Below are positions 4,648-48,625 of a stretch of DNA of 57,145 nt, one piece after another. The DNA comes from Nemertoderma westbladi. Its lineage: Eukaryota; Animalia; Xenacoelomorpha. How positions within the stretch are numbered: the stretch's first letter is position 1; the number at the start of each line of letters is the position of its first letter. The translations under genes and the position numbers were made by a program. Where the stretch lies: positions 1 to 57,145 of the forward strand of contig JAUCBJ010002463.1 of the NCBI GenBank assembly GCA_032718475.1. The letters are read 5' to 3'. The notes beneath the pieces were generated by a model. That model saw nothing but the letters and a program-made list of their open reading frames with translations. It had not been told where the DNA came from and did not search any database.

Positions 4648-4676
4648 GTAGGAATATGTTTTACTGAACTACGGTT
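4648..4676 (+). promoter_or_regulatory. Primer-binding-site position of element 1: not tRNA-like, complementary to LTR 3591-3617
   Basis: GTAGGAATATG (4648-4658) is the exact reverse complement of CATATTCCTAC (3607-3617); no TGG follows the LTR. Confidence 0.65.
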
Positions 4677-11311: not shown

Positions 11312-14300
11312 GAACCTTGTATGTCGGAACAGGAGAAACAATCTCTGAAGATCATGGAAGATACTATCCGCCAGACGAAAGACGGACATTATGAGGTGGG
11401 GATGTTATGGCGTAGCCAAAGTCCTAAACTTATAAACAACTACCCACTGGCTTTAAGACGTCTACACTCAATACGGCAACGTCTATTAAAGGACGAGAAA
11501 GCCCATCTGCAGTACAACACTCAGATGGAGACGTATTTGACTAAAGGATACGCTATCCGAATGACTAACCCGGAGATAGTGACTGACCAAACATATTACT
11601 TGCCACATCACTATGTGAGACACCCCGACAAACCAGATAAAGTACGCGTAGTCAATGACTGTGCGGCTCTGTTTGAGGGAATGTCCCTCAATAGTGAGTT
11701 GATGGATGGACCAAACATGAATAATTATCTTATGGGGGTGATTATGCGCTTCCGTCAGCGTCAAGTAGCTTTTACTTGTGACGTTGAAGCGATGTTTCAC
11801 CAAGTGAGAGCGTTAGAGCGAGACAAAGACAGTTTGCGGTTCCTCTGGTACCCGGAAGGAGACTTAAGTCTACCACCGGCGACTTACCAAATGCAAGTTC
11901 GCGTTTTCGGTGCCAGAGACAGCCCAAATTGTACGATGTACGCCCTAAAGCAGGCCGCTAGGGATCAGAAACATCTATATGACCCAGAGATAATTAAAAT
12001 CGTAGAACGTGACTTTTACGTCGATGACGGTTTACAGAGTTGCGACACAGTAGAACGTGCTACAACAGTAGCACATCAATTACGGGACTGCTTAGCGGGC
12101 GGAGGTTTTAACCTCACCAAATTCGCCTCAAACAGTGCCGAATTAGTAGACTCGTTCGGAACTACTGAGCGTGGAGGTGGTGACATAGACCTAGAGTTCG
12201 AACCACTACCGACGACTAAGGTGTTAGGGCTCTTTTGGGACCCAAACACAGACAACTTTCGAGTGAAAGTGAGACTGGACAGTCAAGAGAACACACTGAC
12301 AAAGAGATCATGCTTGTCAAAGTTGAGCCGATTGTTCGATCCGTTAGGATTCATCAGTCCAGTGATACTGCAAGCCCGCATTTATATGCGCAGTATATGG
12401 AAGGATGGACTAACATGGGACGAGCCGATCTCATCAGACCAAGTGGACTTATGGAAGACCTGGGAGGCGGAATTATCTTCGCTAGAGGATTATTCCATAC
12501 CCAGGGTTTACTTTCCATTACAAAGTACATTTCCTGACAACTTGGAACTACACTGTTTTTCTGACGCCAGTGACAACGGTTTTGGTGTGGCAGCGTACTT
12601 GCGTAGACAAGTAGACTCAGACGAGTTCGATGTTTCGCTCATTACTTCTAAGGCTAAGACCATGCCTACCAAGTATATGACGACACCACGAGCTGAGCTA
12701 CAAGCCGCAACCCTGTCAACCACCATCGTGAACCTCATACAGACAGAACTACAGTCGAGTTTACAGATATTTTATTGGACTGACGCGACGTTGGTTTTAT
12801 TTTACATAAACAACGACACACTCGAATTCAAGACATTCGTAGCTAACCGTCGCGCGGAAATTCTAGATCGTTCAATAAAAGAGGATTGGCGACATTGTCC
12901 CGGACCACAAAACCCAGCTGATATTGCGTCGCGAGGAATGATGCCTGAGGAATTCTGTAAACCGGAGAACAAAGAATTTTGGCAACACGGACCCCAATTC
13001 TTGCAGAAATCGACACAAGATTGGCCTCCGTTATACGACAACAAATCTAATACTATCCCTAAGGACGCCGAAATCAAGAAACCAAAAAAGGGGAAGACAA
13101 AGAAAAGGACGACGGCGGCAAAACTCAAGAAAAAACCGAAGGCGAAATGGAAAGATATAACTTCAAAGGTCAAGAGAGGAAGACTTGCGAGCCTTTCTAC
13201 ACCAGACATATCGCCAGACGGTCAACCAGACATATCGCCAGACGGTCAGCCAGACACATTACTAGACAGTCGACTAGACATTTTGTCAGAAACATCACAA
13301 AATGTTCTACCGGACATTAGTAATGTATTGACAAACAGTAAAGCCGCAGTTTCCCTATTGGAGCGGCCTTCTATTGACAAACAACCAGATACGTTACCAG
13401 ACGTATCGCCAGACACACTACTAGACAGTCGACCAGACACTAGTAACGTACTGACAAATAGTGAAGCCGCAGTTTCCCTATTGGAGCGGCCTTGTATTGA
13501 CAAACTACCAATTTTGACACACTTGAGCAACCATAAGCACGGTGAAACCTCATGTATTACAGATGTGGGTAGTACCTACGCTAATGTAAATACAGGTGTT
13601 ACTTTGCGCTCAAGAGACATACCGAACTTGCAACCTATGGTGAGACCTGGGATTAATGTCGGCAGGAAAATAAGTTTACCGAAACCTGCTGACCCCATAG
13701 AGTTCAAACCACCATTAACGATCGACTTACAAAGTACTGACGATCAAGGTAAGAAGACAAAGAAGGACAAATTACTTGTAGACCCGGACGGATCAACAGT
13801 CAACAAGGGAATACTTACCGGCGGACCCGTGGGCCCTTCTAGTAATTCAAAACCTTCCAAATTCTCAATTGACTTACCTGATGACGTCACAAATACTCAT
13901 GTCGACCGTATTGTAAACTTAACAGATTCTTGGTCAAACGCTTGCCGAAAATTAGCGTGGATTGTACGTTTTGTACAATACGTTAAAGGCAAACGCGACT
14001 TTACACGTCGACTTACATTGGCTGAGATTGACAGGTGTGAAATTATATTAATTCGCCATTATCAACTGCGATATTTCGCGCGCGAATTCACATCCATAAA
14101 TCAAGGTCAACCAATCAAGTCGTCACCAATACTGAGTTGGAGTCCGATAATTTATAATGGCTTAATTTGTCATAAATCTCGGCTTCAAAACATTGACTTT
14201 AACACAAACTTTAGGTACCCAATAATAATACCGCAACACCACGAACTACAACGTGCAATGATACTGGACGCACATTTACATCTGAAACACGCTGGAAGAC

Positions 14301-15409
14301 ACCACTGTCTTTCCTACTTACGTACTAGATTTGTATTAATTAGACCCAGTAAAGCATTAAGTTCAGTGACACGTACGTGTATTATTTGTAAAAAGGTACA
14401 TTCTAGAATAGGTACCCAAGAAATGAGTGAACTACCACAAGCACGACTTCAAGCATTCAGACCACCTTTTACAGAGACTGGAATTGATTGCTTTGGTCCC
14501 ATACATACGAAACGTGGACGCATACTAGTAAAACGCTGGGGACTGATTTTCACATGTATGTCCAGTAGGGCAGTTCACATTGAACGTGTGATGGATCTTT
14601 CCACCAACGCGTTTATACTAGCACTGCGGCGATTTATCGCTAGACGCGGACTAGTGAAATGCTTGTACTCAGACCAAGGGACAAACTTTGTTGGTGCTCG
14701 GAATGAGATTGCTAGAGCCTTTAAGAAATTAGACCATGATCAAATCTCGAACGAACTGCAACCTCACAAGATTGTTTGGAAGTTTAATCCTCCAGATAGT
14801 CCTTGGAGAGGCGGAGTCTGGGAGAGACTGATTAGATCTATAAAGACAGCCATGGCAAAGGTCATTCCAGTAAACCACATATTGACAGACGACCAACTGA
14901 CAACATTGTTTGTTGAAATCGAGGCAATACTAAATACTAGACCAATAGTATTAGTACCCGATGACAAACAATCTCAATTTGCTTTAACACCGGCACACCT
15001 GCTAATGCAGGCACCGACCACATTAATGCCGATTTCTATTCCAATAGAAAGCGACAGCTACGGTAGAAAAGCGTGGAAAATCACGCAACTACTGGCTAAC
15101 AAATTCTGGGAAATATGGCAAAACCATTATTTGCCCTCTATTTCTGCCAGAACAAACTGGTACAATAACACCCGCGCATTAAAGCCGGGAGATCACGTGC
15201 TGTTAGCGGAAGTGAATCTAAAAAGACGCTTCTGGATAACAGGTGTAATTTTAGCCACACATCCATCTATGGATGGAGTGACAAGGACTGTGACAGTACG
15301 GACAATTGACGGTCGTACAGTAGACAGACCGACTCAACGTCTCGTACTTGTTGAAGAGACTCGTAACGAGTCTGGAGACTACAAATCTCCACCTAATACT
15401 AGTAAATAA
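11312..15409 (+). CDS. pol: BEL/Pao pol: reverse transcriptase, RNase H, integrase (open frame, separated from gag-PR by the insertion)
   Basis: YYLPHH, KVRVVNDC, DVEAMFHQV, FYVDD (RT); FSDAS, PRAELQAA, WTDA, NPADIASRG (RNase H); HHCC, GIDCFGP, SDQGTNF, GVWERL (integrase). Confidence 0.96.
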   Translation, partial: EPCMSEQEKQSLKIMEDTIRQTKDGHYEVGMLWRSQSPKLINNYPLALRRLHSIRQRLLKDEKAHLQYNTQMETYLTKGYAIRMTNPEIVTDQTYYLPHHYVRHPDKPDKVRVVNDCAALFEGMSLNSELMDGPNMNNYLMGVIMRFRQRQVAFTCDVEAMFHQVRALERDKDSLRFLWYPEGDLSLPPATYQMQVRVFGARDSPNCTMYALKQAARDQKHLYDPEIIKIVERDFYVDDGLQSCDTVERATTVAHQLRDCLAGGGFNLTKFASNSAELVDSFGTTERGGGDIDLEFEPLPTTKVLGLFWDPNTDNFRVKVRLDSQENTLTKRSCLSKLSRLFDPLGFISPVILQARIYMRSIWKDGLTWDEPISSDQVDLWKTWEAELSSLEDYSIPRVYFPLQSTFPDNLELHCFSDASDNGFGVAAYLRRQVDSDEFDVSLITSKAKTMPTKYMTTPRAELQAATLSTTIVNLIQTELQSSLQIFYWTDATLVLFYINNDTLEFKTFVANRRAEILDRSIKEDWRHCPGPQNPADIASRGMMPEEFCKPENKEFWQHGPQFLQKSTQDWPPLYDNKSNTIPKDAEIKKPKKGKTKKRTTAAKLKKKPKAKWKDITSKVKRGRLASLSTPDISPDGQPDISPDGQPDTLLDSRLDILSETSQNVLPDISNVLTNSKAAVSLLERPSIDKQPDTLPDVSPDTLLDSRPDTSNVLTNSEAAVSLLERPCIDKLPILTHLSNHKHGETSCITDVGSTYANVNTGVTLRSRDIPNLQPMVRPGINVGRKISLPKPADPIEFKPPLTIDLQSTDDQGKKTKKDKLLVDPDGSTVNKGILTGGPVGPSSNSKPSKFSIDLPDDVTNTHVDRIVNLTDSWSNACRKLAWIVRFVQYVKGKRDFTRRLTLAEIDRCEIILIRHYQLRYFAREFTSINQGQPIKSSPILSWSPIIYNGLICHKSRLQNIDFNTNFRYPIIIPQHHELQRAMILDAHLHLKHAGRHHCLSYLRTRFVLIRPSKALSSVTRTCIICKKVHSRIGTQEMSELPQARLQAFRPPFTETGIDCFGPIHTKRGRILVKRWGLIFTCMSSRAVHIERVMDLSTNAFILALRRFIARRGLVKCLYSDQGTNFVGARNEIARAFKKLDHDQISNELQPHKIVWKFNPPDSPWRGGVWERLIRSIKTAMAKVIPVNHILTDDQLTTLFVEIEAILNTRPIVLVPDDKQSQFALTPAHLLMQAPTTLMPISIPIESDSYGRKAWKITQLLANKFWEIWQNHYLPSISARTNWYNNTRALKPGDHVLLAEVNLKRRFWITGVILATHPSMDGVTRTVTVRTIDGRTVDRPTQRLVLVEETRNESGDYKSPPNTSK

Positions 15410-16066
15410 TTAGGAGTTTACAAATAGATTTCCACGTACCTGTACACTGTAGTAAGGACAGCGGTAGAATTCCATTGTCTTTATATGTGAACATTGAGGG
15501 TAGTACCCTTATGTGTCACATAGGAGCGGGATTTGTAGGTATAAGAAATGGAATTCTACTTGGAACTCACAATATTGAGACATTTTCGAAATTTTAGACA
15601 ATCCATTTGGATTTGAAAAATTTTTAAAATTTTCTCCAGTGAATAGATTTCAGGGTACAGTCGGGTGGAACTTAAAATTAGAGAAACAAGAGAGGAAGAC
15701 TTGCGAGCCTTTCTTAAAATTTTAATTAAATTTTACACGGTCTTGTTTCAATAAGTTACGTCAAAATAGACTCCCCTATATTTATTACTAATTCTTGATT
15801 GCTTATTTTCTGATAATAGTTTGGGATCAAAAGGTGAGTATTTTAGACTCACAGCCAGTTTAGCCCAAATTCGTTTTTATTTCGGCAAAAATTTTAGATA
15901 AGAAGCAGCGTGTCATTAAAGAAACCCTAGATCTTAGGGTATGGGTAGGAGGTTAGAGCGTTGTCGAGCCCAAAAGGCAGACGAAACTCTCACGTCTCCT
16001 CACAACTAACCACAAACTCTGTTGTATTCCCTCTAGTAGTAATGATTATGTAACTACACCCTAATT

Positions 16067-17769
16067 ATGGAGAAAGGGATACAAGGAGAGTCGAGATGGG
16101 GATATGATATCCAAGAGGAGGCAGCAGCGCCATTCGAAAGATTTGGAGCCAAGGACTACACTATATTTGGTATAAAGGAATTATCAGAAAGTACAGCGAA
16201 GCTCGCAAAGACAGTAATGCCTTTAATCGAGCAGGATTTAGCATATTTCGAGACGTGTATCTTCGCTGTGCGGGATCTCTTATCGAAAGACCATCTATGT
16301 TTACATTGTTACCCTATGAAGGAGAACGTATCGTGGAGATTACGGAAGAATCACGGCAGACGCGCGCGCCTATCGGTCACCTTGGTGATGAATTCGAAGT
16401 AACTACTACGATCGCCGACGATCCTTTAGAGGAACTTCTTGAGATAGAAAGGAACCTCCCGAAGAAATCTCAGACGGAGATTCGACAACTTGAAGCAACG
16501 GATGCTATAGTTTGTATACAACCTTCAGAAACCTACCAACCCATAGACCCAGATGATTACGATTATAGTATGGGAGGAAGCGCTCGACCGATTGGAGATC
16601 TTATATACGAACGAGTGTGGTACCCTGCCAATACGATGTGTAGTAAATGTGGCGTCGCTGGACATCATATGGCAAAGTGCAGTGGAAAGCACATTACTAC
16701 GACTCAGCTAATCTGTGGATGGTGTGGGGATCAAGGGTCTCATACCTTTTATACTTGCTGGAGATTTATGGCTCAGTGTACTTATTGCAATATAAAGGGA
16801 CATCGAGCATCTGAATGCCAACTAAGGGACATACCTTATGAACACGAATCTGTAAAACTCGTGAGGAAGTTATTTGATGAGTGGGAAGATTTAGCCGACG
16901 AACATGTATCGGCACAGAGAAGACGGTTTCCGATGAGAGCGCATCTCGGATTTTGGGCGGTAAATCCTCAAACGATGATGTCGGAAGGATATATCTCCGC
17001 TATGCCCCAATATGACGAACTTATCGAGGTTGTCGATATTTTGCCCCACGACAGCGGATTCCGAGTGGTGCGCGAGTATCTACTACAGATTCACCCGGAT
17101 AACAAAAACACGTGGAATTTTCAGAAAGTCGTTAATCGGATTACGTATGGTGAATTCGATCGTTTCCGAACTGAAAAGCGGAACAAAGGAGCTTGGTTAA
17201 CCGTCGCATGGGCGTACCGAGCCGCGTTTTACCATAAACGTATACGAGCGAGCGTATTCGAGGAAGAGGAGGTCCTAGAGGCGACAAATATACCAGCCAC
17301 TCCGGTTGCGCCGTCTGCACGTCACCCTCGGGAGGACGGACAGGGTAGGATCATACGGGTCCAGAAAGTGGGCCAACAATTAAAGAAAATTATTAATGTA
17401 GAAGAACGCAAGGGAGTTGAGCCGACTATTCGAGTTACTCGGGATACGGTATCACTTCCAAGAGAACCAGTAGGAGGATCGGGACATACACCAGCTGATC
17501 AACAGGGGGCGCAAGCTACTCTTGGGTCTGCGTCGTCCACTTCTCGCGCGTTCCCAGACGTTCTACCAACTGTAGTGACGACTGATCGGTCACGAGGAAT
17601 CGGTCGAGGTTTTGGGATGCCAAATAGACGAATTTGCGAGGAAATAGTCGCACCGTCTCTCAACGTCCCAAGTAAACCAGTGACTCGCCCCATTAGTCCC
17701 ATATCGCGAGCAAAGTCACCTGTGCGAAGTTTTCGAGGACGCGGCAGGGCTCGATCCACTAAGCGATAA
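16067..17769 (+). CDS. Accessory 3' ORF of element 1: three CCHC zinc knuckles plus uncharacterised domain (probably one frameshifted ORF)
   Basis: CSKCGVAGHHMAKC, CGWCGDQGSHTFYTC, CTYCNIKGHRASEC followed by LFDEWEDLADEH...RRRF...LGFW; lies between the integrase stop and the 3' LTR; ORFs 16067-16402 and 16255-17769 overlap. Confidence 0.8.
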
Positions 17770-18832: not shown

Positions 18833-19335
18833 GGCAGAATACCTAAGGACTGTGGTAAATCTAAGGTTGAGAGTAGGCTGGAGAGCTAAGGTCGCGAGTA
18901 GCGTGGAGGTGAGGAAGGGAGTAGCTTGCTTAGGTGGATGGTAGGAAAAACCCGGCTTTCTATTGGCTGTTATAAATAGCTTACATAGTTTAAACTATAT
19001 AGTAGTTCCCCTGGTTGAGGAGATGGGAAATCATGTACTGGGATAGGCTGCTAAGTTAACCCAACAAAACAACTAAACTTTTAATTAATTATTGATTACA
19101 GGCAAGGATTTGGAAGGAATTTTTTAATTTCATCAAAGGTTTACGTTTAATTAAACGAGTATCAGTTAATCGTGTTATATTGACAAATAAATTATCATAT
19201 TACAAATATATTATCTAGTTTTCTATACTTATGAGTAAATAATAAACTTTCTATAATATGTCATGACTTCAAATGCATCCACGAATACCGTGTTTTGTTT
19301 GATAAGGGAATTAGCAAAGGAGACCTGCCATTTAG

Positions 19336-19366
<31 letters not shown>

Positions 19367-20156
19367 TCATTTTTGGGGGTTTTAGAGCATGTAGTCGTAG
19401 GCCTAGGTTTTTGTACTACATGGTGTTGATCGTGTGGGTGGACCACCGAACAGTTGCGAATTTTAGACTAAAATAGACAATTGTTTAAAATTTATTGTTT
19501 ATTTGGTAATCCGATACTCACATTGCACATATAGAGTAAGATATACAAATACAGTATTGTATAATTGCAATATTAAAAGTTAAGTTACAATAATACTTTG
19601 GACAATGGTGTGGCTAGTATTATAGCCCAATGTATTGTCTGGGAGTGCCGGGCAGGTAGGTATGTAGTGTAGGTAGGTAGGTAGGTAGGTGTGCAGTGCT
19701 TGCAAAAAAAAGGGGGGGGGGGATATTACTATTATGTGAATTGTGAGGTGTGAGATTGTTACTGTTGTTGTTGATAGGGAAATAATTAATTATCCTAAGT
19801 TAATCTCCAGCGCAATCAATTGTTTCACTGGAGTTCCGATGCTGGATCCAGGTATATAAAACTAAACTAATGAGTCGAGTTAGGAAATACATAAAATATA
19901 AAGTATTGGATGGAAAAGGTTATGGAAAATTGGTAAAATCTATGTTTTATTGATTGTTTACAGTGTACTTTAATTTAATATTTTAGAAGGTGACCTATTT
20001 CGAAAAGGGTACTATATTTTTGATTTTTTATGTTTTACGTCAGCAAAGGAATCAGAGTTCCATATCGTTGGCCCTGAAAAATAATTATTAGTGTTTGGAA
20101 ATTATTGGAAAACTAATGTATCTTTGAGATGAGCAATGCGCATATCCTTGCCTTAA

Positions 20157-20867
20157 GGGGGGGGTACACCATTTTGGTCCAAAATATGTCGAAATTTTTT
20201 TTATGGTCTATTATAATGCACCATTGAATGGTGTTTCCAAATCTGAAAACCGCTATTTAATAGCTCTTTCAGTTTTCAAGTTATGTAAATTTCCATTTAC
20301 GGAATCCTATTGAAATTACTATTACTATGTATAATGAAAGGTCGATTATCTCCAAATATTTTTTTCATGAAATTGTCAACTTCAAAACCCTACTACTTCT
20401 ACAATTTTTGAGTAATTAGTCTGAAACTTCCTGTGGGTGTCTAGATAGTCACCCTGCATAAAAGTATCAGGCAACTTTTCGAAATTTTTTGTTAATAAAA
20501 TTTAATACTATTTATAAAAAACCTAAAAATTTGCATAAATTTGCAGCGCCACCTAGCGGTGCAGAATTATTTTAACAAAATTTCGCCTGATAGTTATGTT
20601 GCCCCATCTTTGATCTATCATATAAAAAAACTTTCATGTGATTAGGTTCAAAACTGTAAAAGCCTTAGGGTTTTAAGCGCAACCAAGTTTTTATTGTTGT
20701 TAACTAGTATTAACTAATATTAAATAGCGAAAAAAAAAAATTTTCTGACCTGTCATGTAGAATAGCATCTTAGGCACCTATATGCCAAATTTTAGCCAAA
20801 ATCAAACAATTTTGAAACGCTGAGAGTGATAAATCGAAGAGTTGTCCGAAAATGGTGTACCCCCCCC
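20157..20867. mobile_element. TTAA-flanked MITE (Kolobok-like, purine termini)
   Basis: TTAA|GGGGGGGGTACACCATTTTGG ... CCGAAAATGGTGTACCCCCCCC|TTAA. Confidence 0.85.
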
Positions 20868-20871
20868 TTAA

Positions 20872-21252
20872 GGCCTGTTTACGCGTGGCAACTTTTAGAG
20901 CAACTTTCTCGGCAACTTTTAGAGCAAACCAGGTTGCCGATCAAGTTGCTCCGTGTAAACACGTAAGTTGCTGAAAAAAAATGCCGTAAAATTTGCTCAA
21001 CTTTTACGGCAACTTGAAGGAATTTGCGTTGGGGAATTAAAGCGGGATAATCAGATGTAATTATCAAAAACTAGCTAGTAGATAAAATGACCCACTATTT
21101 TACAGTTAAACTCGCCAAGTTGCTCTAAAAGTTGCCGGCCAAGTTGCTGGTAAAGTTGCCACGTGTAAACAGCGATTAAATTAAGTTGCTCCAAAAAAAG
21201 TTGCTAGTTTGCCGAGAAAGTTGATCTGAAAGTTTCCACGTGTAAACAGACC
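20872..21252. mobile_element. Harbinger-like MITE
   Basis: GGCCTGTTTACGCGTGGCAACTTT ... AAAGTTTCCACGTGTAAACAGACC inverted termini; internal AAGTTGC and GTGTAAACA repeats; TSD imperfect. Confidence 0.75.
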
Positions 21253-21563
21253 TTTAGGGGTCGAATAGCCTACGTTGATAGTTAGACGTAAAGGATAATA
21301 TATTATTTGTTGAATAAGTTAAATTTGTATAAGTTACTGTATAATGTACAATGCTCTATATGTATATTACATGTTCTCATACTGTATAATATTAATATTG
21401 ATGTTTCAATATTTACAAAGTATAATAATTCTAATAAAAATATGTATGGTAGAAAAATACATTATTGCGTTTTTCCTTTCTCTCTGCGTTTTTCCTCCCT
21501 CTCTGGTCATTTTTCCGCGTAATTCTTTTCCCCCCTTGTTTACAGTCTGTTTTGCCCCAGCCC

Positions 21564-23347: not shown

Positions 23348-23450
23348 GATACATATGCGGATACATATTTGGCTGATCTACGCCGACTGTTATCGCGAGT
23401 GCTACAGGACCATTTCAGGGAGGTGCACGAACAGCGGCTGGTCGGGACCT
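23348..23450 (+). pseudogene. Gypsy-like gag remnant, 3' half
   Basis: ADTYLADLRRLLSRV resembles the major-homology-region motif expected after ...TPYAAYE of the 2551-2722 fragment. Confidence 0.6.
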
Positions 23451-23460
23451 ACGGGACGCC

Positions 23461-25840
23461 GTCGCTGGACAATGCGATCTTCGAGCATTTCCACTACGTG
23501 GTGAAAGGAGATGAGGCGAAGTTCGGGATTCCGTATAAATCCCGTACGCGAGAGAGTCACCGAGGAAAGATTGGAAGAGGTTCATAGAGTCCGTCAGCAG
23601 GGGAGGGTACATGATCCTAGACGACGAAGGAACCGTGGAAGACGAGGAGGGTTCGAAGAGAGGGTCGGCGGGATCGGCCAGAACCATACTCCTACATTTG
23701 GCCGCGCCAAATGGGGATATTTTCCTATTTGACCTGGGAACATATGGGAAGAAGGACGGCCCGAAGTTAAACCGGTTGCCGAAGGCAGTGCAAGTCCTAG
23801 TAAGAGAGAAGTCGACAACGAAAGTGGGATCGGCGATTCGCGATGATGTGGAGAGAATCATCGGTCCGGACACCCCAACCTCCTGGATATGCAGACGGTC
23901 TTCATGGCTATGACAGCACCAGACGGGTTGGGACTAGTCGAGAACACAGACCATTGCGGAGCGGTGGCGATGGGCCAGCTATTGGGGCTCGTGTGTCACA
24001 AACCAATGGACTGGGGGAAGTTCAGAGAAGAGTACAGAGCAGAATTAGCGAACTCGCTGAAGTGGGGAGCGAGGCCGGGGAAACAAGAGGTGTATCAATT
24101 CCGGAGAGGAGCAATAAAGGTATATCAGAAGCGATATATCCTGCAGGAGGACTGGATAATGATAGGTTTGCTTAACCTATTCATGACCGTGGTTATTGAG
24201 AGGGAACCAACGGCATTCCTATTATCGGGATCACCCCTAAGCTACAGAAGAGCCTTTAAGACGGCTTTCGTGGGTCTGGTAGACCACCCGGGGCTGAAGG
24301 GCGAGTCGGTGTACTACAACAGCCGACATCTGGTAGACGGGGAGATAGATACGCCGTATCAGAGGTGGGAGGAGCTAGAGACGGATAGACGAGAGGCGAA
24401 GCAACTGGATGATGTCGCTAGACAGGAGAGGAGAGAAGCAGAGGTAAGGGAGGAGGAAGCTAGGACACAGAGCTACGGCTTCGAGGAACAGGCGGGCTTA
24501 GACGAACTTCGTTGGACTTCATCAGGGAGTTCGGGGGAGTCTCTAGGGCGAGAACTGGGATGGACGGTGGGCTCACCGAAACAGTCGACGTCGGGATTGC
24601 AGACGACGCCCATACCAGCGGGCGCCGAGGGCGACCGGCCGCTAAGGAGGCTAGGGGAAAGGATGGGCTAAGGATGGAAAGCTACGGGCGAGAGCCAAGG
24701 CGGGAAGGGACATAGTGGGTCCACCGGGATACCGGGGCTGGAGCCACTCCCAGAGGAGGACGAGGACGACGACGAGTTCGGAGAGATGCCGCCCATCGGG
24801 AGGATCAGCCACTCGGACACGGACTGGGTTGGCGGGAGGGTGGTGACGGCCAGTGGGGCGAGGGCCTTCTGGGATAGACCCGGCAAGCGGGCCTGGGTGC
24901 ACGAGGAGCCGGCGATGGATTTCGCGGGGAGCACTATCAGGTTGGGCGAGCAACCGGGGACGGCACCACGGGTAGTATTCGGGGAGACGATGCCCGGGAG
25001 GGGCGAGGAGATCGATGTAGACAGGGACACTAAAGTCCGGAAGTTCGCTTACCAACGACTCCACAGACCGCGGAGATCGCTTGGGACGAAAGACGACGTG
25101 GGGCGGGAGACATTGGTGCTCGGCTGTGACTACTGTGGGAGACAGACCCATCAGGAAAGGAGCTGCTGGTACCGGTTCCAGAAAGGGACTAGTTGTCTCT
25201 ACTGCCGCGAGTCGAGCCACAGGATGGGGGCGTGTCCACGGTTGCATAACCGATGTTTGAAGTGTAACTTTCGGGGACATTACGGATGCCAGTGTGACTG
25301 CATGGATGACGAAGAGAAGTTTAGGATCTTCGAGGAGTGGGCCGACGTCGGGGCGATGACTCGGCAACGTATGAAGGCCCAGGAGTTCCGGTGGGGCTTC
25401 TTTAACATCAATCAGGAGGCTCACATGGAAATTATCAAACGGAGGCTTCCGTTTACTTACCAGGAAGTGGCGACGGCGGCATCATATGCCGGAGTGATAA
25501 ATACACAGAGGTATTTGGATAGGTGGACGCCACAGAACAGAGGAGAGTTTAGGGATTTCTTGGCGGAGCATGTGCCGCGGGCAATGAAGTTGATCCTATG
25601 GGACGCCACCAGGGGGAGACAGCAGGGCCACTCGGAGGGGCCACCCGCGAAGCGATACCGGGAGCTAATAACACCGGCACCCAAGGAGTCGACGACCGGG
25701 ATCAGTAAAGAGGTGGTGGCGAGAGTCCGAAGCCAGAGCACAAGACCAGAGGAGCGGCAGTGACCAGGAAACGACCTAGGGAAGAGGACGACAGGGGGAA
25801 AGACTTGAGGTGGTTCCCAAAGGCAGGTGGAACGAACTAA
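23461..25840 (+). pseudogene. Frameshifted accessory ORF: DEDDy-type 3'-5' exonuclease-like domain plus three CCHC knuckles
   Basis: YMILDDEG, LLHLAAPNGDIFLFDL, KVGSAIRDD, KWGARP...QKRYILQED; CDYC..H..C, CLYC..H..C, CLKC..H..C; split across ORFs 23611, 23889 and 24786. Confidence 0.8.
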
Positions 25841-26530
25841 GACTTCAGTGTAACATGCCTAGAAGGCACCACGCGAGACGTGCGAACTCCTAAGTACAAA
25901 TTCAAGTAATTTAAATAATTGAAAAAGTGCAATTAGTAGGTACGTACGTAGTAATCATTATTAGTTTAGCAAAATATAATCGAAGTAAGTACTGTAGTCA
26001 TTCAACCTTTTTCCAATTAGCTACTGGACTGGGGGACGACTGACTATGACGAACGAGACGCTGGACGACATCACACATCTTGAGTGCGATGGCACAGGAG
26101 GGGGGTGAAACTCGTCGGGAGTGAGTGGGAGAGAAAGGGGTTGAGTTGTGGTGCTGAGAGAGTGCAGGTGCAATTCAAGTGTGGGGGGGGGGGGGGGGGG
26201 GAGGAATAAGAGGCAGAGTGAGGGACAGGGAAGTCCGAAAGTTAGAGCGGAAGTGAGGAGAAGTAGAGGAGAGTCAGGGTGAGAACAGAGCAGAGTTAGT
26301 GGTGAAAGTGTTGGGGAAACAAAAGTCGTGTGAGAGGAGCGCACGATCGGCCCGACACGGGATGCCAGGTAAACAGGGTAGCGATATCATACCCATAGGG
26401 GGCGGTCTGGAAAGCCGGCTCCGAAAAAATAGTTCCACCCCACACTCGACACTAGGTCGTGATCCAGCGGAATTGTAGCGCACTAGAGGTGGATGCTATC
26501 TTCTTACCGGGAAGATAGCATGGGGGGGAG

Positions 26531-27116
26531 TGTTAGCGTATTCAATTCTGCTAGCCAGGCCCACAGAGAGTTGGGTTTTAAGCAATATTGGAACTACAAG
26601 GTTGATTACCAATCAACCTTGTATCACCCCAATAAGCGGGGACAATAGGCCCCAAGGGAACACACACAGTGGGGGTCAGAGGTTATACCTCCGGGAGAGA
26701 GAGAGAGATAGCAGCGGGGGGGAAGCACACCCAGGGGATGGGAAGGTGACAAGTGAGTTATTAGCCAATGGGGGGAAGGCATCAGCTGGGTAGCATTATA
26801 TGGCCAACCCGTGCAATATATTACCAGCTACCATGTCATTTAGTTCAGTTATCTCATTCAGTCAGTCGGTTCAGTTAGGGCACAGCGGTGACTTCTAATA
26901 CCGTCCACTGCCGCCATTATTCACCTATATTTTAGTTCATTCATTCAATGCTGCAATAACTGTCTTTGTGCTTATCCTATTATATTTATACTGCTACAGC
27001 GTCAACAATATTAGAACTCTTAATCTGACAATAAAACGCTTTTCACTCACACGGCGGGGACGCGTAATTAAAGAACCAAAACCGGATAAACCGAGATCCT
27101 CCTGGATCCCGTCACA
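26531..27116 (+). repeat. 3' LTR of element 2 (586 bp, TG...CA)
   Basis: Follows the PPT; CCAAT, TATA-like and AATAAA motifs; ends GGATCCCGTCACA like 33585 and 29005. Confidence 0.9.
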
Positions 27117-28756
27117 AATACCAATAACTTGATTAACAGAAGATTTTGCATATGTGGATTAGTTACTAATCCACTTAATAGCCCCTCAGCTTAAATATGT
27201 GCTTAAAAATGGTGTATAGCAGGAACCAGAACCATGTCAATTAATATTCTGGTAATGTACGTTTCAGAAGAAACCTGAGAAGCTGTATACCCCACAGACC
27301 CAAGTGGTCATTTTGTCATATTGGTAAGTTCAATAAAGTCCTTCTGTAATTCATAAGTCCTACATCCTATGAGGAAGAAGTATAGGAGTTCGGTGCAGAG
27401 GTCCTCTTTTCGAAATGATTCGATTACCTTGAAGACTAAACATTGTTTATATTCCTCATAAAATCTATTAAATAATCTTAAATATAGGTAATATTATAGA
27501 ATAAAACAAAAGTTTAACTTACATAGGGTTGATTCACTGTTATTAAGTTCTGGAACTGAAAGTGGATGGAACAACACGGAATGTTGGTTACCTGGGGGAG
27601 GTTCGTTTATATTCACTTCGTATTCTGTATCTTCTGTGTCGTTGATCAAGCTAAAATAATAATAGTAATTACAAACGGATAGTAATTATTGGTAAGTAAT
27701 AATTATGATAGGTATTTAGGGCCTGGTTATGAAAGTACAGACTGATGGTAAGTCTAGGTATCTACGTAAAGACGGATGGTAAAGTCTAGGTATGTATGTA
27801 CATTGTACATACATATGATATGTCTGTGTATGCAGACTGCTAGTGGTTAGACTAATTATGTGCTAATAAAATAATGCAACCGAACTATGTAATAAACTTA
27901 CACTTATTTGTAGATAAGTTTTTCTTACGTCAGGATCTTTGGAGCTGAATAAATTGTAGCGACTCTGCGACACTTTGATTTTAGACGCGTAAAGTTTACT
28001 GACGCTGTGGATTCACATGCCACCTATATGATGTTATTAGAAACTGAACTTTATATCTACAAATATTGGTGTTACCAGTTCACTGTATATTCCTATAGAG
28101 ATATAATCTCAAATACCTCTGTAATGGAATGTTTGTCACAAGTAACAAATCACAAACGTCACAAATAACATATAAAAAATCCTGATTATGAATAACATTG
28201 GTCGAAACAATTATATTCGATATAAATGATTAGCGCAATAGCGGCTATTAGCGGATTAGCGGATATCACAATATAACATAACAGACACAAAGATATTACT
28301 ATCTTAACAAGAAATGTTCAGCATATTTGATGATTTTTACAAAAGAATAGATCTATTCTTTGTAAAAATCAACAACCAAAATTAATTCAAATGAGGTGGA
28401 ATGTTTATGTAAAATCCTCAACTGCATTTGTATCGAGTTGATTAATCTGTTTGTTATCCTCAGAATGAACATTAATTTACTTGAATATTGAATTATAATT
28501 ACATGAAGTTACTGAGTTTGACAATTCGTTTATTAGCCAATATACTCCTCACCACCAGGATAATTAATTCCATCTAGGGTCAGTATCCCTATTTAAATAA
28601 CTTGCGATATTTGCAAAGCTAGCCTTTTAAGTTTTAGCAATGGTGTGGACCAAGTATGTTGTAAGTACTTAACATATCTTTAAGTGTAACTACGTAGTTC
28701 TACTAAGTATAGCAAGTTTTCAGCAAGTTTTAAGTATAGCAAGTATAGCAAGATAC

Positions 28757-29005
28757 TTAGTCGGTTAGCTAGGGTAGAGCGGAGACTTCTAAGACCGTCC
28801 TCGCCTACCACCATTATTTGTACATACTGTAGTACTTCAATTGCCATCTATCCATTTATACTATATCCATCTTAACATTTATATTATACATACATCGGAG
28901 AACTAATAACATCAGAACTCTCGAACTCTTTTCACATACAAACGGCGGGGACGCGTACTTGCAATAACCGCGGATAAACCGGGATCCTCCTTGTATCCCG
29001 TCACA
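28757..29005 (+). repeat. Partial 5' LTR of element 3
   Basis: TTAGTCGGTTAGCTAGGGTAG...ATCCCGTCACA is nearly identical to 33345-33585. Confidence 0.9.
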
Positions 29006-29058
29006 GTCATAGAACACCAACTACTACCCTAGTATTAGAACTTCCAGCTAGCTACGAT

Positions 29059-29502
29059 ATGAGTGACGTAACGCCAACGCGGACCCCGGACGAAGAACTA
29101 ACGATCCGCGAGGCCGCGACCAGACGGTACAGGCCCACGACGCCGGACCCATCGGTAACGGGTCATCCGGCAGTTCAAGATGAGGGGGGCCGTCTGGAGC
29201 CAGAGGTCGAGTCGAGAGGAGCGGGAGTCGAGTTGAGAGGAGGAGAGGGCGAGTTGGAAGGAGAAAGAGACGAGTCGACACACGACGACGGTCGACGTGC
29301 CGATGTCGCCGGCCAGCCACAGGCCGAGGGCGACGGACGGCCCACCGGAACGGCGATGGTGGGGCCGCCGGTACGACGTCGGACCTGGAGAGATGGAGGA
29401 GAAGTCGGAGACGAGGACGTCGTACCGGCGGCCCCACCGTCATACTGCTGTACTACACAGGCCCATAGAGTAGGTCAGAATGTGGATTATGAACCAGAAT
29501 AA
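29059..29502 (+). CDS. Short low-complexity ORF at the gag position (probable gag N-terminal remnant)
   Basis: 147-aa ATG-initiated ORF 54 nt after the 5' LTR; Arg/Glu/Gly-rich, like the N-terminal gag region of element 5; no recognisable domain. Confidence 0.45.
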   Translation: MSDVTPTRTPDEELTIREAATRRYRPTTPDPSVTGHPAVQDEGGRLEPEVESRGAGVELRGGEGELEGERDESTHDDGRRADVAGQPQAEGDGRPTGTAMVGPPVRRRTWRDGGEVGDEDVVPAAPPSYCCTTQAHRVGQNVDYEPE

Positions 29503-29825: not shown

Positions 29826-32336
29826 ATGGCGGGGAAACTGATCAGGAAGAGAAAGGCGGAGTCAGGAGGAAAGGAGATACAGGTGGATTTCACCAAGAGG
29901 CATCCGGAAGAGAGGACGAGGGGATACTACGACCGGTTAGGAAAGGGTCACGCAGCACGAGCGCTACAGTCGTTGGACAATGCGATCTTCGAGCATTTCC
30001 ACTACGTGGTGAAAGGAGACGAGGCGAAGTTCGGGATTCCAAAGTACGCGAGAGAGTCACCGAGGAAAGATTGGAAGAGGTTCATAGAGTCCGTCAACAG
30101 GGGAGGATACATGATCCTGGACGACGAAGGGACCGTGGAAGACGAGGAGGGTTCAAGGAGAGGATCGGCAGGATCGGCCAGGACCATACTCCTACATTTG
30201 GCCACGCCAAATGGGGACATTTTCCTATTTGACCTGGGAACGTATGGGAAGAAGGATGGGCCGAAGTTGGACCGGCTGCCGAGGGCGGTGCAGGTCCTAG
30301 TGAGGGAGAAGTCGACGACGAAAGTGGGATCGGCGATTCGCGAGGACGCAGAGAGAATTATCGGTCCGGACGCCACCAACCTCCTGGATATGCAGAAGGT
30401 CTTCATGGCTATGACAGCACCAGACGGGTTGGGACTAGTCGGGAACACAGGCCAATGCGGAGCGGTGGCAATGGGCCAGCTATTGGGGCTCGTATGTCAC
30501 AAACCGATGGACTGGGGGAAGTTCAGGGAGGAATAAGGAGCAGAACTAGCGAACTCGCTAAAGTGGGGAGCGAGGCCGGGAAAGCAAGAGGTGTATCAAT
30601 TACGAAGAGGAGCGATAAAGGTATATCAGAAGCGATATATCCTGCAGGAAGATTGGATAATGATAAGTTTGCTTAACTTATTCATAACCGTGGTTATCGA
30701 GAGGGAACCAGCGGCATTTCTGTTATCGGGATCACCCCTAAGCTACAGAAGAGCCTTTAAGACGGCTTTCGACGGTCTGGTAGACCACCCGGGGCTGAAG
30801 GGCGAGTCGGTGTACTACAACAGCCGACATCTGGTAGACGGGGAGATAGATACGCCGTATCAGAGATGGGAGGAGCTAGAGACGGATAGACGAGAGGCGA
30901 AGCGACTGGAAGAGGTCGCTAGACGGGAGAGGATAGAAGCAGAGGAGAGGGAGGAGGAGGCCAGGACGCAGAGTTACGGCTTCGAGGAACAGGCGGGCTT
31001 AGACGAACTTCGTTGGGCTTCATCTGGGAGTTCGGGGGAGTCTCTAGGGCGAGAACTGGGATGGACGGTGGGATCGCCGAAACAGTCGACGTCGGGGTTG
31101 CAAGCGATGCCCATACCAGCGGGCGCCGAAGGCGACCAACCGCTAAGGAAGTTAGGGGAGCTAGAGGGATGGAGAGCTACGGGCGAGAGCCAAGGCGGGA
31201 AGGGACATAGTGGATCCACCGGGATACCGGGGTTGGAGCCACTGCCAGAGGAGGACGAAGACGACGACGAGTTCGGAGAGATGCCACCCATCGGGAGGAT
31301 AGGCCACTCGGACACGGACTGGGTTGGCGGGAGGGTGGTGATGGCCAGTGGGGCGAGGGCCTTCTGGGATAGACCCGGCAAGCGGGCCTGGGTGCACGAG
31401 GAACCGGCGATGGATTTCGCGGGGAGCACTATCAGGTTGGGCGAGCAACCGGGGACGGCACCACGGGTAGTATTCGGGGAGACGATGCCCGAGAGGGGCG
31501 AGGAGATCGACGTAGACAGGGACACTAACGTCCAGAAGTTCGCCTACCAGCGACTCCACAGACCGCGGAGATCGCTTGGGACGAAAGACGACGTGGGGCG
31601 GGAGACATTGGTGCTCGGCTGTGACTACTGTGGGAGACAGACCCACCAGGAAAGGAGCTGTTTGTACCGATTCCAGAAAGGGACTAGTTGTCTCTACTGC
31701 CGCGAGTCAAGCCACAGGATGGGGGCGTGTCCACGGTTGCATAACCGATGTTCGAAGTGTAACTTTCGGGGACACTACGGACGCCAGTGCGACCGGATGG
31801 ACGATGAAGAGAAGTTCAGAATCTTCGAGGAGTGGGCCGACGTCGGGGCCATGACGCGGCAACGCATGAAGGCCCAGGAGTTCAAGTGGGGTTTCTTCCT
31901 TATCAATCAGGAGGCTCACTTGGAAATCATAAAGCGGAGGTTACCGTTTACCTATCAAGAGGTAGCAACGGCGGCGTCGTATGCCGGGGTGATAAATACA
32001 CAAAGGTATTTGGACAGGTGGACGCCACAGAACCGAGGGGAGTTTAGGGATTTCTTGGCGGAGCATGTGCCGCGGGCAATGAAGATGATCTTATGGGACG
32101 CCACCAGGGGGAGACAACAGGGCCACTCGGAGGGGCCACCCGCGAAGCGATATCGGGAGCTGATAACACCGGCACCCAAGGAGCCAACGACCGGGATCAG
32201 TAAGGAGGTGGCGGCGAGAGTCCGAAGACAGAAAGCGGATCCCAGAGGAGCGGTAGTGACCAGGAAACGACCCAGGGAGGAGGACGGCAAAGGGAAAGAC
32301 TTGAGGTGGTTCCCAAAGTCAGGAGGGATAAACTGA
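29826..32336 (+). pseudogene. ~836-codon accessory protein: WRN/MUT-7/EXD-like DEDDy exonuclease, acidic linker, three CCHC knuckles and FEEWAD motif; single nonsense codon
   Basis: ORFs 29781-30536 and 30591-32336 are in the same frame; TAA at 30534-30536 corresponds to TAC in element 2. ExoI ILDDEG, ExoII KVGSAIRED, ExoIII-like W...QKRYILQED. Confidence 0.82.
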
Positions 32337-33036
32337 GACTTCGATGTGGTACGCCTGGAAGGCGCCACGTGAGACGTGCGAACTATTAAGTACAAATTCA
32401 AGTAATCTAAATAATCAAATAAGTGCAATTTGTATGTACGTACGTAGCAATCAGTAATCTACGAGAATATACATTCGAAGTAAGTACTATAGTCATTCAA
32501 CCTTTACCCAATTAGCTACTGGACCGGGGAGGACTGACTATGACGAACGAGGCACCAGACGACTTCACATTTCCTGAGTGCGACGGCACAGGAGAGGGGG
32601 ATGGGACTCGTCAGAGATGAGTAGGTTAGCCAAAGAGGGGTCGAGAGACGGAGTAATAGTGCGGAGTGCGGAGAGAGTGCGGATGCAATTCAAGTGTGGG
32701 GGGGGGGGATAGGAGGCTGAGTGAGGGACAGGGAAGTCCGAGAGTTAGAGCGAAAGAGAGGAGAAGTAGAGGAGAGTCAGGGTGAGAACAGAGTGGAGTT
32801 AAAGTGGCGAAAGTGTTGGGGAAACAAAAGTCGTGTGAGAGGAGCGCACGATCGGCCCGACATGGGACGCCAGGCGAACCGGGTAGCATTATCATACCCA
32901 TAGGGAGCGGCCTGGAAAGCCGGCTCCGAGAGAAAATAATTCCACCCCACACCCGATACTAGATCGGGATCCAGCGGAATTGTAGCGCACTTGAGGAGGA
33001 TGCTATCTTCTCACCGGGAAGATAGCATGGGGGGAG

Positions 33037-33585
33037 TGTTAGCTTATTCAATTCCGCTAACACCCCACAAAGTAAGCCGTTAAGCAGTATTGGGGGCCAC
33101 GAGGTTGATTACCCAACCTCGTGCCACCCCAACAGAGTGGGAAGGAGAAACACACAATAGGGGTCAGGGGCCACACCCCTGACAGAGAGAGAATAGCAGG
33201 AGTGAGGGGAAACACTCCAAAGGGCGCCAACAGGGATATTAGCCAATGGGGGGAAGGCACCGGCTAGGTACTGTAACAACGGCCAAACCGTGCAATATAT
33301 ATTATTAGGTATCAGTAATCAGTTATTCAGTTATCTCATTTGTGTTAGTCGGTTAGCTAGGGTAGAGCTGAGACTTCTAAGACCGTCCTCGCCTACCACC
33401 ATTATTTGTACATACTGTAGTACTTCAATTGCCATCTATCCATTTATACTATATCCATCTTAACATTTATATTATACATACATCGGAGAACTAATAACAT
33501 CAGAACTCTTTTCACATCCTAACGGCGGGGACGCGTACTTGCAATAACCGCGGATAAACCGGGATCCTCCTTGGATCCCGTCACA
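33037..33585 (+). repeat. 3' LTR of element 3 (549 bp, TG...CA)
   Basis: PPT GGGGGGAG, then TGTTAGC...GGATCCCGTCACA. Confidence 0.92.
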
Positions 33586-38175: not shown

Positions 38176-38193
38176 ATCCGATTCGAAGGACCA
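38176..38193 (-). promoter_or_regulatory. Canonical BEL-type tRNA primer-binding site of element 4
   Basis: Minus strand reads ACA|TGGTCCTTCGAATCGG directly after the LTR end. Confidence 0.85.
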
Positions 38194-44510: not shown

Positions 44511-44761
44511 CAAAATTTTTTTTTTTCGATCTACCCTAATATACATACAGTAGGAATAGTTTCTGCAGCTGTGGCAATGGCCTCATACCTGTGGCTCATC
44601 TGCATTGTGATGCTTGATCTCACACTAAGCTGTTGTAATGGAGATAACAGATCATGCTGTGGTGGCAAGGCATAATGTCAGATTTGATATCATGGACATT
44701 AAGTCTCACCTTAGCCATAAAGACTAAGGTGAAAAAGGGATAAGAGGTTAAGTGTACTTAA

Positions 44762-46293
44762 CCCTATTAGTACCGGGCTATAAAATGTTGTACAAATACC
44801 GGGGGGGGGGGGGGGGGGTCATATTGACCCCCCCCCCCCTCTAAAATCTACAAATATTTACAAAAACGTCTGATTTTTTGTTTGTACGTAGGTATCACTT
44901 ATCTGGATCCAACCGAAAAAAAAATTTTCGAAAAAATGTACTGGGGTGGTTATATTGCAGCACCAAAATTACAAGTAGTGCACAATTTTCACCAAATTTG
45001 AAAGTTACATTTTCGGCGAATTATTTTTCAATACAGGTTTTCTGGGGTGCAAAATACATTGGAAAATATTAAAAAATGATATGATTACTATAAATGGCTG
45101 TTTAGTCCTTGTGTTTAGAACACAAAATTTTTAATTCACTTATACGATGCTATAAATTCACATTTTCAGGTTTTCGATGGCGCTGATTCTAATGGAATAC
45201 ATTTCTAATATGCCAGATCATTGCTACTTGTATTTTTCGGCGTAATTTGGCAAATTTTGGTGCTAGCACCAAATTTCGTACCCATCACCAAAAAGTACAA
45301 GTTTGCGATGTCCAGTGCTGTTTTTATTGATTCCATCGGATTCAGGACCCTCATAAACCCGTATAACGCAAGAAACAAGGTGATACTATCTACTTATCAA
45401 TTTGCATATTTTCCAAAATTTGGTGCTGGCACAACAATTTTCACCCACCGGCGAAAAATACAAGTTTGAGAACTCTTATGAAATTTTTACTGATTCCATT
45501 GAATTCAGAACCATCACAAACCCGTATAACACAAGAAACAAGGTGACACAATCAATTGATATATTTGATGGTTTTCAAAATTTGGTGCTAGCACCACATT
45601 TTGCACCCACATCCGAAAAATACAAGTTTGAGATGTCTAGTTCGATAATTATATTTTCCATTGAATTCAGAACAGCCATAAACCTCTAAAACGCAAGAAA
45701 TAAATTGTCACAAGCAATTTTATCTATTGAATGGATTTTCAAAATTTCGTGCTAGCACCAAAATTTGCACACAGCACCGAAAAATACAAGTTTGATACGC
45801 TTGGTGCAACTCGTATATATTTCATCGAATCCAGAAACCCAAAAAACCCCTATTGCGTAAAAAACAAGTTTCAAACGTTCAATTTACAAAATTGACTTAT
45901 TTCAAAATTTGGTGCTGGCACCAAAATTTGGCACCCGCCGAAAAAAACAAGTTTGAAATTTCTAAATCAATTTATATGAATTCCATCCAATTGCTAACAC
46001 CAACAAACCGGTGTAAATCAAAATTAGAGATTTTACAGTTAATATTTAATGAAATGTAATTTTCAAAAAACGTCTCAAAAAAAAGTGCCAAAAGTAGGGT
46101 TAAAAAATAGTGCTATAACTCGAGAACTACCCAATATTTTTGTAAACAGCTTTCACTACTAGGAAAACAATGGATTTTTATGAAAAGTCATAAAATTTCA
46201 GAATCCCAACTGCGTTTGTTTCAGAATTATAATATAAAAACCACGGGTGGGGGTCATATTGACCCCCCCCCCCCCCCCCCGGGTTTAATAGGG
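44762..46293 (+). mobile_element. piggyBac-like non-autonomous element, copy A
   Basis: TTAA|CCCTATTAGTACCGGG ... CCCGGGTTTAATAGGG|TTAA; subterminal GGGGTCATATTGACCCC palindromes; internal ~170-bp repeats. Confidence 0.92.
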
Positions 46294-46712
46294 TTAAGGA
46301 GAGTTAAGTAACTTGTCTCATGTTCACCAACTAACTGCTGAGTGAGTTGGAGTAGAATGTTAGAGTATCCTCAAGCTCTAGTATCCTTCTTCCCCGTACA
46401 ACGTGGTACCTTTGGTGACCCAGGGTTTGGGCAAGAAAGGTCATCAGGTCATAACTGGCGCTTGTGATGCCATTTTGGTATAATTTTTCCACTGGTTCCC
46501 AATGATCAGACGTCCGCAATATTGTTGTACTCCATAGTGAGGCTTAAGAGTGTTTGTATTTCTCCTCAGCTCTCAGGCCAAATACCCTCCTTGTTTGCCA
46601 TTCCACAAGATTTTGGTGTCGCAGCAGCTAGATGTACTACATGTCAATTGTACTGGGTACACCACTCTCGGCCTATTGTAAAATGATTTATACGATATAA
46701 GTACATACTTAC

Positions 46713-46954
46713 CCTTGAACCAACAATTCGGAAGGCGCAACAATCCTGTCGATTGTAGATATTAACCAAACCAATGGTTAGGTCGTCAAACCCAATATCA
46801 ACCCACCACCAATCCTGTGGTAAATAGTCTAGAGTGTGGAAACAAGAACCACCAGCCCAATGGGAGTTGGTATTGCCATCGACTCCTTTCGAAGATGGTT
46901 TTTGGGTACTCATAACGCTACTCATACCTGTGGGTCTCCCAAAGGCTAAGTTAC
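46713..46954 (-). CDS. Host TSP1/F-type lectin gene, exon with the N-terminal half of the F-type lectin domain
   Basis: TTTTTTTAG|GTAAC...AGG|GTAAGT; NLAFGRPTGMSS...KGVDGNTNSHWAGGSCFHT...WWWVDIG...IYNRQDCCAFR contains the H...RxDxxxxR fucose-binding motif; phase 1 to phase 0 fits both neighbouring exons. Confidence 0.93.
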
Positions 46955-47013
46955 CTAAAAAAATTGTATGGAATTAATTTCGCACTCTATTGCTAGCAAT
47001 TATTGGTTTTTAA

Positions 47014-48282: not shown

Positions 48283-48625
48283 TTAAGGTGTTGAGATTTA
48301 TTAGGGATTAATGCCATCATACAGAATTGCTTAACACCTATAAGTAATGATTGACACTACTTATAATAATGGCTTAATTAATTAATTAATGGCTTAATGC
48401 AACTTGAAGTAATTTGTACTATTAACCAAAACACCAAAACACTAATTAAGTGTTTAGGTACAACAAATGTGTGAGTAATGGGAAATAATATTTCCCCTCA
48501 ATGTATTTAGAAATATTGTATCTAAATATAGGGTAATCATGGTTTTCTTACTATTGGAATTGGAGAGTTATCAAATGTAACAAGCAACTATTGGAACAAA
48601 GTTTTTTTATAGGCGTTCGATTCGA

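Follow-up and report, generated by a model that had tools for sequence, protein, structure and literature searches.

Element 3 (E3) probably uses its own RNA, by the 5' end, to prime the synthesis of minus-strand DNA in the style of Tf1, a reading to which we give a probability of about 0.55. The leader of E3 pairs with the LTR, the pairing is specific to the element's own LTR, and a TGG is missing. Judged from sequence, E3 has a real, family-wide, self-complementary candidate primer site in a superfamily that is described as tRNA-primed, and in outline this site would work like that of Tf1, outside the Tf1/sushi lineage. What is new is that in predicted folds of elements 2, 3 and 5 (E2, E3 and E5) U5 pairs, in different letters, with the bases that follow the putative primer end, and that this end comes about 55-70 nt after promoter-like motifs.

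The window, meaning the whole 57,145-nucleotide stretch of DNA that was analysed, is animal-like eukaryotic DNA and contains several LTR elements of the BEL/Pao kind. Element 1 (E1; 2723-23347) is a BEL/Pao element with DUF1759, Peptidase_A17, Integrase_H2C2 and DUF5641 domains (Pfam). Over the best 120 of 1802 matches, identities between its reverse transcriptase (RT) region and BEL/Pao polyproteins are 39-44%, and the named BEL/Pao matches among these 120 come from marine invertebrates, mostly molluscs, sea urchins and corals. Its 1.9-kb LTR (2723-4647) has TA..TA ends and a 5-bp target-site duplication, GATAC, which is intact, and the LTR pair is 99-100% identical. One LTR family is common to E2, E3 and E5. 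Of the domains that serve as BEL/Pao criteria (DUF1759, Peptidase_A17 and DUF5641), E1 has all three and E5 has DUF1759, in a Gag accompanied by an aspartic protease (Pfam); a Ty3/gypsy chromovirus-type polyprotein is found in neither, the domains of both being those of BEL/Pao. A further criterion, a TG...CA LTR behind a polypurine tract (PPT), is seen in the 3' LTRs of E2 (26531-27116, forward strand), E3 and E5 (51001-51580, reverse strand), the ends of E1 being TA..TA. E3 is assigned to the BEL/Pao type solely through the LTR that it shares with E5. An 18-nt primer-binding site (PBS) for the 3' end of a host tRNA is absent from both E1 and E3. Element 4 (E4), a BEL/Pao-like fragment, has a TGG-type PBS (38176-38193, reverse strand) directly after the CA, which we take to be of tRNA-Tyr identity and which serves as an internal control; two types of PBS thus occur among BEL/Pao-like elements within one window.

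Several other features of the window were recorded. The E1 LTR has a tRNA-like stretch at about 2848-2915 with words that resemble an A box and a B box; ARAGORN and Rfam call nothing there and have no match within the whole window. It is possible that the E1 LTR contains an intron; E3, for its part, does not require a primer produced by splicing. The E1 3' LTR carries a 2.7-kb insertion (18834-21563) with an 8-bp duplication at its flanks and short inverted repeats at 20864-21260, short tandem repeats at 13199-13510 of E1 Pol extend the linker between RNase H and integrase, and a duplicated block with an array of repeats of about 163 bp occupies 44758-48288. A DNA pattern search with the LTR ends matched 1 viral and 19 metagenome sequences; as none of them aligned to the window, they were taken as chance. 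Protein-led locus searches of viral contigs (with the E1 RT, P0028, P0013 and P0001) and of genome contigs (with the E5 Gag-protease) returned nothing usable.

E3 lacks pol, its ORFs being a short first one and an accessory one, and is therefore non-autonomous. Its 5' LTR remnant (28757-29005, forward strand, as is all of E3) holds most of R and U5 and ends in CA; U3 and the promoter are gone, the first 308 bp being missing relative to the 3' LTR, from which the remnant differs by 4 substitutions and one 8-nt indel. The break at 28756/28757 lies about 25-35 nt behind the Inr-like motifs described below and 3 nt before the outermost pairing with the leader, and a different repeat (28583-28719) is found upstream of it. 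The 3' LTR (33037-33585; 549 bp, TG...CA) follows a PPT at 33029-33036, and the same tract precedes the TG in E2, E3 and E5; a 3' LTR start at 32884 (TA) was ruled out by the PPT-TG junction at 33037. Upstream of the PPT is a strongly conserved block (32884-33036 in E3, 26379-26530 in E2 and, on the reverse strand, 51720-51581 in E5) that ends in an 11-bp inverted repeat (about 33000-33028) adjoining the PPT and is possibly a packaging or plus-strand priming signal. There is no target-site duplication at the ends of E3. The leader (29006-29058) leads into the first ORF (29059-29502), which has no Pfam family and whose start is covered at high depth in public contigs. The accessory ORF (29826-32336) encodes a DEDDy-type 3'-5' exonuclease domain and a triple Cys/His knuckle, and an in-frame stop at 30534-30536, inside the exonuclease domain, breaks the present copy.

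Position 29005 is the real end of the LTR: the 3' LTRs of E3, E2 and E5 all finish in GTCACA, and the depth of public contigs drops sharply there. The observations from which the earlier note set out, namely two paired segments with equal 9-nt spacers, pairing from the first base after the LTR and a lack of TGG, hold throughout. Helix 1 joins 28787-28795 to the putative self-PBS at 29006-29014 with 8/9 pairs (an A.A mismatch at 28792/29009) and a pair probability of about 0.6. Helix 2 joins 28769-28777 to 29024-29032 with 9/9 pairs, seven of which have probabilities of 0.96-1.00, and is stronger than the primer-proximal helix. The 9-nt spacers on the two strands are not complementary to each other, and no TGG occurs in 29006-29065. 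C28795, the last LTR base of helix 1, is the putative 3' end of the primer. The predicted fold of 28757-29065, whose overall stability is not unusual (z -1.2), has in addition a third helix between LTR and leader (28760-28769 with 29047-29058; mean pair probability 0.69) and a 10-bp stem between R and U5. The leader also holds two similar 9-mers 26 nt apart (29006-29014 and 29032-29040), the second of which is the exact complement of the E2 helix-1 strand; the pair is perhaps a relic of a duplication.

The duplex between the LTR and the first 30 leader bases has an energy of -26.5 kcal/mol, a value that none of 1000 LTR shuffles and none of 1000 leader shuffles reach; when the partner is instead the final 600 nt of the region of the 3' LTR, the counts are 4/1000 for LTR and 1/1000 for leader shuffles. 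In an ungapped test anchored at leader base 1, E3 has 18/27 Watson-Crick pairs (0/200 shuffles). The first 11 leader bases taken alone pair at 8/11, which is within chance (28/200 against the 5' remnant and 84/200 against 32884-33585), and comparable duplex energies, down to -28.1, occur in some coding windows downstream that are rich in GC, so the signal resides in the in-register pattern at the exact junction. The leader is specific in that it pairs at 18-19/27 with its own LTR versus 12-15/27 with the LTRs of E1, E2 and E5. The TGG-type leader of E4, taken from its second base, has no fit beyond chance to any of these LTRs. For the 3' LTRs of E2, E3 and E5 the anchored shuffle tests included 136-153 extra upstream bases.

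E1 offers an independent instance of what its sequence shows as a self-complementary PBS, in an unrelated type of LTR. Its putative self-PBS (4648-4658, forward strand) starts at the first base after the LTR and is complementary to 3607-3617 of that LTR at 11/11 positions (1/200 shuffles), versus 7-8/11 for other LTRs, and a TGG-type PBS is lacking after the 5' LTR. In both elements the putative primer ends in AC opposite a GT, as had been claimed, and pairing begins exactly at leader base 1; the two leaders differ, each tracking its own LTR. The TATA-like motif nearest to the E1 segment, at 3131, precedes it by about 450 nt, and the PBS duplex is absent from the minimum-energy fold of 1161 nt.

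The possibility raised in the earlier note that position 29006 is just a deletion junction was checked in contigs from four public runs, representing three samples (one of them perhaps the source of the window), which were aligned to the region; their depth does not measure copy number. Among the 22 of 36 rows listed, 14 rows, comprising 40 contigs, concern loose ends at the LTR end. In these 14 rows, 22 of the 40 contigs, from all four runs, continue past the CA/GT junction and leave the reference at 29007, 29008 or 29014; 15 depart at 29005 with low agreement, as expected of 3' flanks, and the other 3 at 29003 or 29006. No TGG is seen at the junction in the rows listed, which are mixtures that could hide a few TGG leaders. 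In four contigs a diverged leader of 60-70 nt connects the end of the LTR with the start of the ORF. Since the CA/GT junction and the LTR-leader-ORF layout recur in other copies, the junction is a family trait and not a deletion. The leader is the variable part: 29023-29052 has no cover in one contig set, and elsewhere a single spanning contig differs by 22 changes and 9 gaps. Two loose-end cells, inspected by eye, contain runs complementary to E2-type sequence, in one case to the helix-2 strand of E2 and in the other to a start of R resembling that of E2; both are unphased and only suggestive. Leader starts predicted earlier for E2 and E5 find no letter-for-letter match among the loose-end cells listed, which are likewise unphased.

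Because TGG is lacking, because own-LTR-specific pairing occurs in two unrelated LTR types and because CA/GT is genuine elsewhere, self-priming is supported as the likeliest reading of these sequences for both E1 and E3. The interpretation in the earlier note is thus partly supported: shared self-priming is likely, and the trimming of an RNA 3' end that had been suggested with it is disfavoured.

The choice between the two ends of the RNA depends on what surrounds the putative primer end. The 3' LTR of E3 has a CCAAT at 33243, a TATA-like motif at 33294 and Inr-like TCAGT at 33312, 33319 and 33327, which, judged by consensus sequences, we take to be a promoter, and its copy of the primer segment ends at 33383. 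Transcription of E3 likely starts some 55-70 nt upstream of the primer end, which would place the primer segment near the RNA 5' end and inside R. Directly after the putative primer end begins the R-U5 stem, in which 28796-28805 pairs with 28944-28953. The counterparts predicted in E2 (26899-26913/27052-27066, forward strand) and E5 (51193-51173/51057-51037, reverse strand) likewise belong to the minimum-energy folds, with mean probabilities of 0.97 for the E3 5' remnant plus leader, 0.94 for E2 and 0.72 for E5, and few shuffles match them (0/500, 1/500 and 2/500 for E3, E2 and E5). The letters of the stem differ among the three, with C-G versus A-U at the fifth pair and other differences beyond. 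E1 has an analogous stem (7/500 shuffles). When the E3 3' LTR is folded alone, the stem is outside the minimum-energy fold (mean probability 0.32). Accessory pairing in U5 beside the primer duplex, a Tf1-type criterion, is therefore predicted in three families, and a stem that is conserved yet differently spelt agrees with cleavage within the 5' copy of R. Together with a primer end about 55-70 nt behind promoter-like motifs, the R-U5 stem favours a Tf1-like 5' fold-back with cleavage over 3' trimming.

The hexamer ACCGTC is identical in the LTRs of E2, E3 and E5 and straddles the junction of the primer helix and the R-U5 stem. A hairpin around this segment had been described for all three; a local hairpin with TT..ACC in its loop does fold in each, but none is individually significant (122/300, 39/300 and 50/300 shuffles). 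Just before the LTR end is a terminal U5 hairpin (28980-29000), predicted in the E3 and E5 folds, that has one mismatch in the E3 5' copy and 8 bp in the E3 3' LTR and is conserved in sequence across E2, E3 and E5.

The start site, the cut and the priming step that we infer for E3 can be arranged as follows. The RNA would start about 55-70 nt before C28795, and its 5' end would fold onto the leader in the three helices. The next ten bases, 28796-28805, would be held by U5, placing the 28795/28796 bond at a helix junction. This bond would be cut by an endonuclease, for which the RT-associated RNase H of a helper element is the likeliest candidate, and the cut would leave a 3' end ..AC on the first leader bases, GT. 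The helper RT would then copy U5 and the remainder of R, which is presumably long enough for the first strand transfer. The other copy of R, at the 3' end, is followed by no leader and would remain in its local hairpin. In Tf1 cDNA, plus-strand synthesis apparently copies the self-primer, according to the available text of PMC11042837. If this also happened in E3, changes in the LTR would enter the PBS, which would explain why the leader tracks its own LTR.

It is possible, though somewhat unlikely, that the pairing is instead a regulatory or packaging switch between the hairpin and the long-range fold, with something else as the primer, for instance a fragment from inside a tRNA or a different host RNA. 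The bases at the primer end are predicted to adopt two mutually exclusive folds, the local hairpin and the long-range pairing, as a switch would, the greater strength of helix 2 over the primer-proximal helix is consistent with such a role, and Ty1/copia elements are known in which half-tRNAs act as primers and TGG is lacking (PMC6317226, available text). A switch would leave the exact start at leader base 1 in E1 and E3, each leader following its own LTR, without a ready explanation, and a host primer would need to differ from one subfamily to the next even though GT always faces an AC that does not vary.

Priming from the 3' end of the RNA is the less probable of the two self-priming routes, and we consider it unlikely. 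Here the loop of the 3' R hairpin would invade the leader, and a DEDDy exonuclease would trim the tail and poly(A) back to the duplex. If the motifs are read correctly the segment is in R and hence at both RNA ends, the primer end lies in the local hairpin loop in E2, E3 and E5, and docking of the loop first would free a tail that could be trimmed. The exonuclease itself is real. The proteins encoded at 29826-32336, 23350-25763 and 16108-17769 belong to a family with 87 relatives in the database, recognised through the knuckles (E up to 0.001), almost none of which has a Pfam name. A profile made of 30 relatives, with the proteins of the window excluded, matches the N-terminal part in E3 (E 9.7e-12) and E2 (E 2.2e-9). 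In the Atlas, clusters bearing PF01612 are found at 0.93, the family being present on 29-40% of members; one of 30 longer homologues matches PF01612, just below the cut-off. The E3 exonuclease part has no match among longer proteins, in Pfam or by PDB sequence. Its predicted model (pLDDT 69) has a DnaQ-like fold, with EXD2, RNase D and Nibbler as best Foldseek matches (E about 1e-5), which makes a domain of the EXD2/RNase D fold in E2 and E3 real at the level of modelling. Acidic residues and a Tyr are found by eye at motif-like places of the E3 domain, and catalytic activity is putative.

Evidence against trimming comes from E1, which bears the cleanest self-PBS. The accessory ORF that E1 had been said to share with E3 is indeed common to both, through the knuckle region only (E 3e-8), and the profile detects no exonuclease domain in three frames of E1 15400-16500, compared with 61.8 bits in E3; remnants seen by eye at 15430-15700 gained no support from it. 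Moreover, the U5 stem opens the 5' copy and thus favours it, and use of 3' R as the primer would presumably remove most of the acceptor for minus-strand transfer. DEDDy ORF3s also occur in other LTR elements without, in the available text of PMC5408684, a demonstrated role in priming. The trimming suggested in the earlier note consequently fares poorly, even though the enzyme proposed for it exists in E2 and E3. A broader scenario, in which an animal BEL/Pao lineage dropped tRNA priming, the hairpin loop of the 3' R docks on the leader and the RNA is then trimmed to the duplex by a captured protein that combines an RNase D-like exonuclease with knuckles, strikes us as improbable. If true, it would be a route unlike both tRNA priming and the Tf1 cut, and would give the exonuclease ORFs of LTR elements their first function.

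That the pairing is an artefact of this one dead copy, produced by a deletion junction or by an inverted duplication, is very improbable and largely refuted, for although this E3 copy is damaged (truncated 5' LTR, no target-site duplication, stop in the accessory ORF) and its exact leader is absent from the contigs of one set, CA/GT and the LTR-leader-ORF layout recur in three samples, the spacer is non-complementary though both flanking helices pair, and E1, with its intact duplication and nearly identical LTRs, has the same anatomy.

Priming by means other than a complete host tRNA has several precedents. The Caenorhabditis elegans element Cer7 carries its own tRNA primer. Extra exonuclease ORFs downstream in an LTR element are known from the bdelloid elements Juno and Vesta, whose DEDDy ORF3 encodes an RNase D-like 3'-5' exonuclease with no function shown in the available text of PMC5408684; in contrast, the exonuclease of the E2/E3 type is fused to a triple knuckle and occurs in a BEL/Pao-type element. 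The ICTV describes BEL/Pao (Belpaoviridae; Semotivirus) as host-tRNA primed, with an 18-nt PBS for tRNA-Arg or tRNA-Gly (PMC8742986). The domains of E1 and E5 match this family, but the tRNA PBS of the profile is lacking in E1 and E3, E3 is without pol, and the E1 LTR is 1.9 kb long with TA..TA ends. No report of self-priming in BEL/Pao was found in the literature searched, which was available in part and lay largely outside subscription journals and Repbase reports; the terms primer, PBS and tRNA do not occur in PMC3118150.

Self-priming has been shown for Tf1 (PMC7175516), and there are proposals of it for Tj1, for Tcn1 and for the TAR lineage of copia (PMC4600332, PMC6317226), as stated in the available parts of these sources. 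For the TAR/Houba/Osr-1 lineage of Ty1/copia, which belongs to another superfamily and host than E1 and E3, it is likewise predicted from LTR-PBS complementarity alone. By the rule given in the accessible text of PMC6317226, at least 10 bases starting 0-5 nt after the LTR, E1 has a self-PBS, and E3 falls short in a single run (8/9, then 9/9).

The closest likeness is to Tf1 and Tf2 of Schizosaccharomyces pombe, Tj1, Tf1/sushi elements and Tcn1, which lack a tRNA PBS and have a sequence after the LTR that is complementary to their own LTR transcript (PMC7175516, PMC4600332, as far as available). In Tf1 an 11-base fold-back and RNase H cleavage make the primer, as PMC7175516 reports in its available part. 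The Tf1 group is Ty3/gypsy, unlike E1 and E3, which are BEL/Pao. The primer end is at base 11 in Tf1 and is predicted 55-70 nt behind the promoter motifs in E3 and several hundred nt behind them in E1, so the primer of E3 would be far longer than the 11 nt of Tf1. Pairing in E3 is split into several helices, unlike that of Tf1, and cleavage, which has been shown in Tf1, is proposed for E3. Lin and Levin (1998) are said to have found that a helper structure in U5 is required in Tf1. An element that primes itself in this way would no longer depend on the tRNAs that the host supplies, and annotation that relies on the PBS would overlook families of this kind; the high copy number and many diverged subfamilies of this one make covariation and the primer junction directly testable. 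Self-priming in BEL/Pao would also bear on whether hairpin priming is ancestral or was re-invented, a question raised in the available text of PMC3601003. If the Tf1-like reading of E3 is true, a third LTR superfamily self-primes beside Ty3/gypsy and Ty1/copia, with a longer, multi-helix primer.
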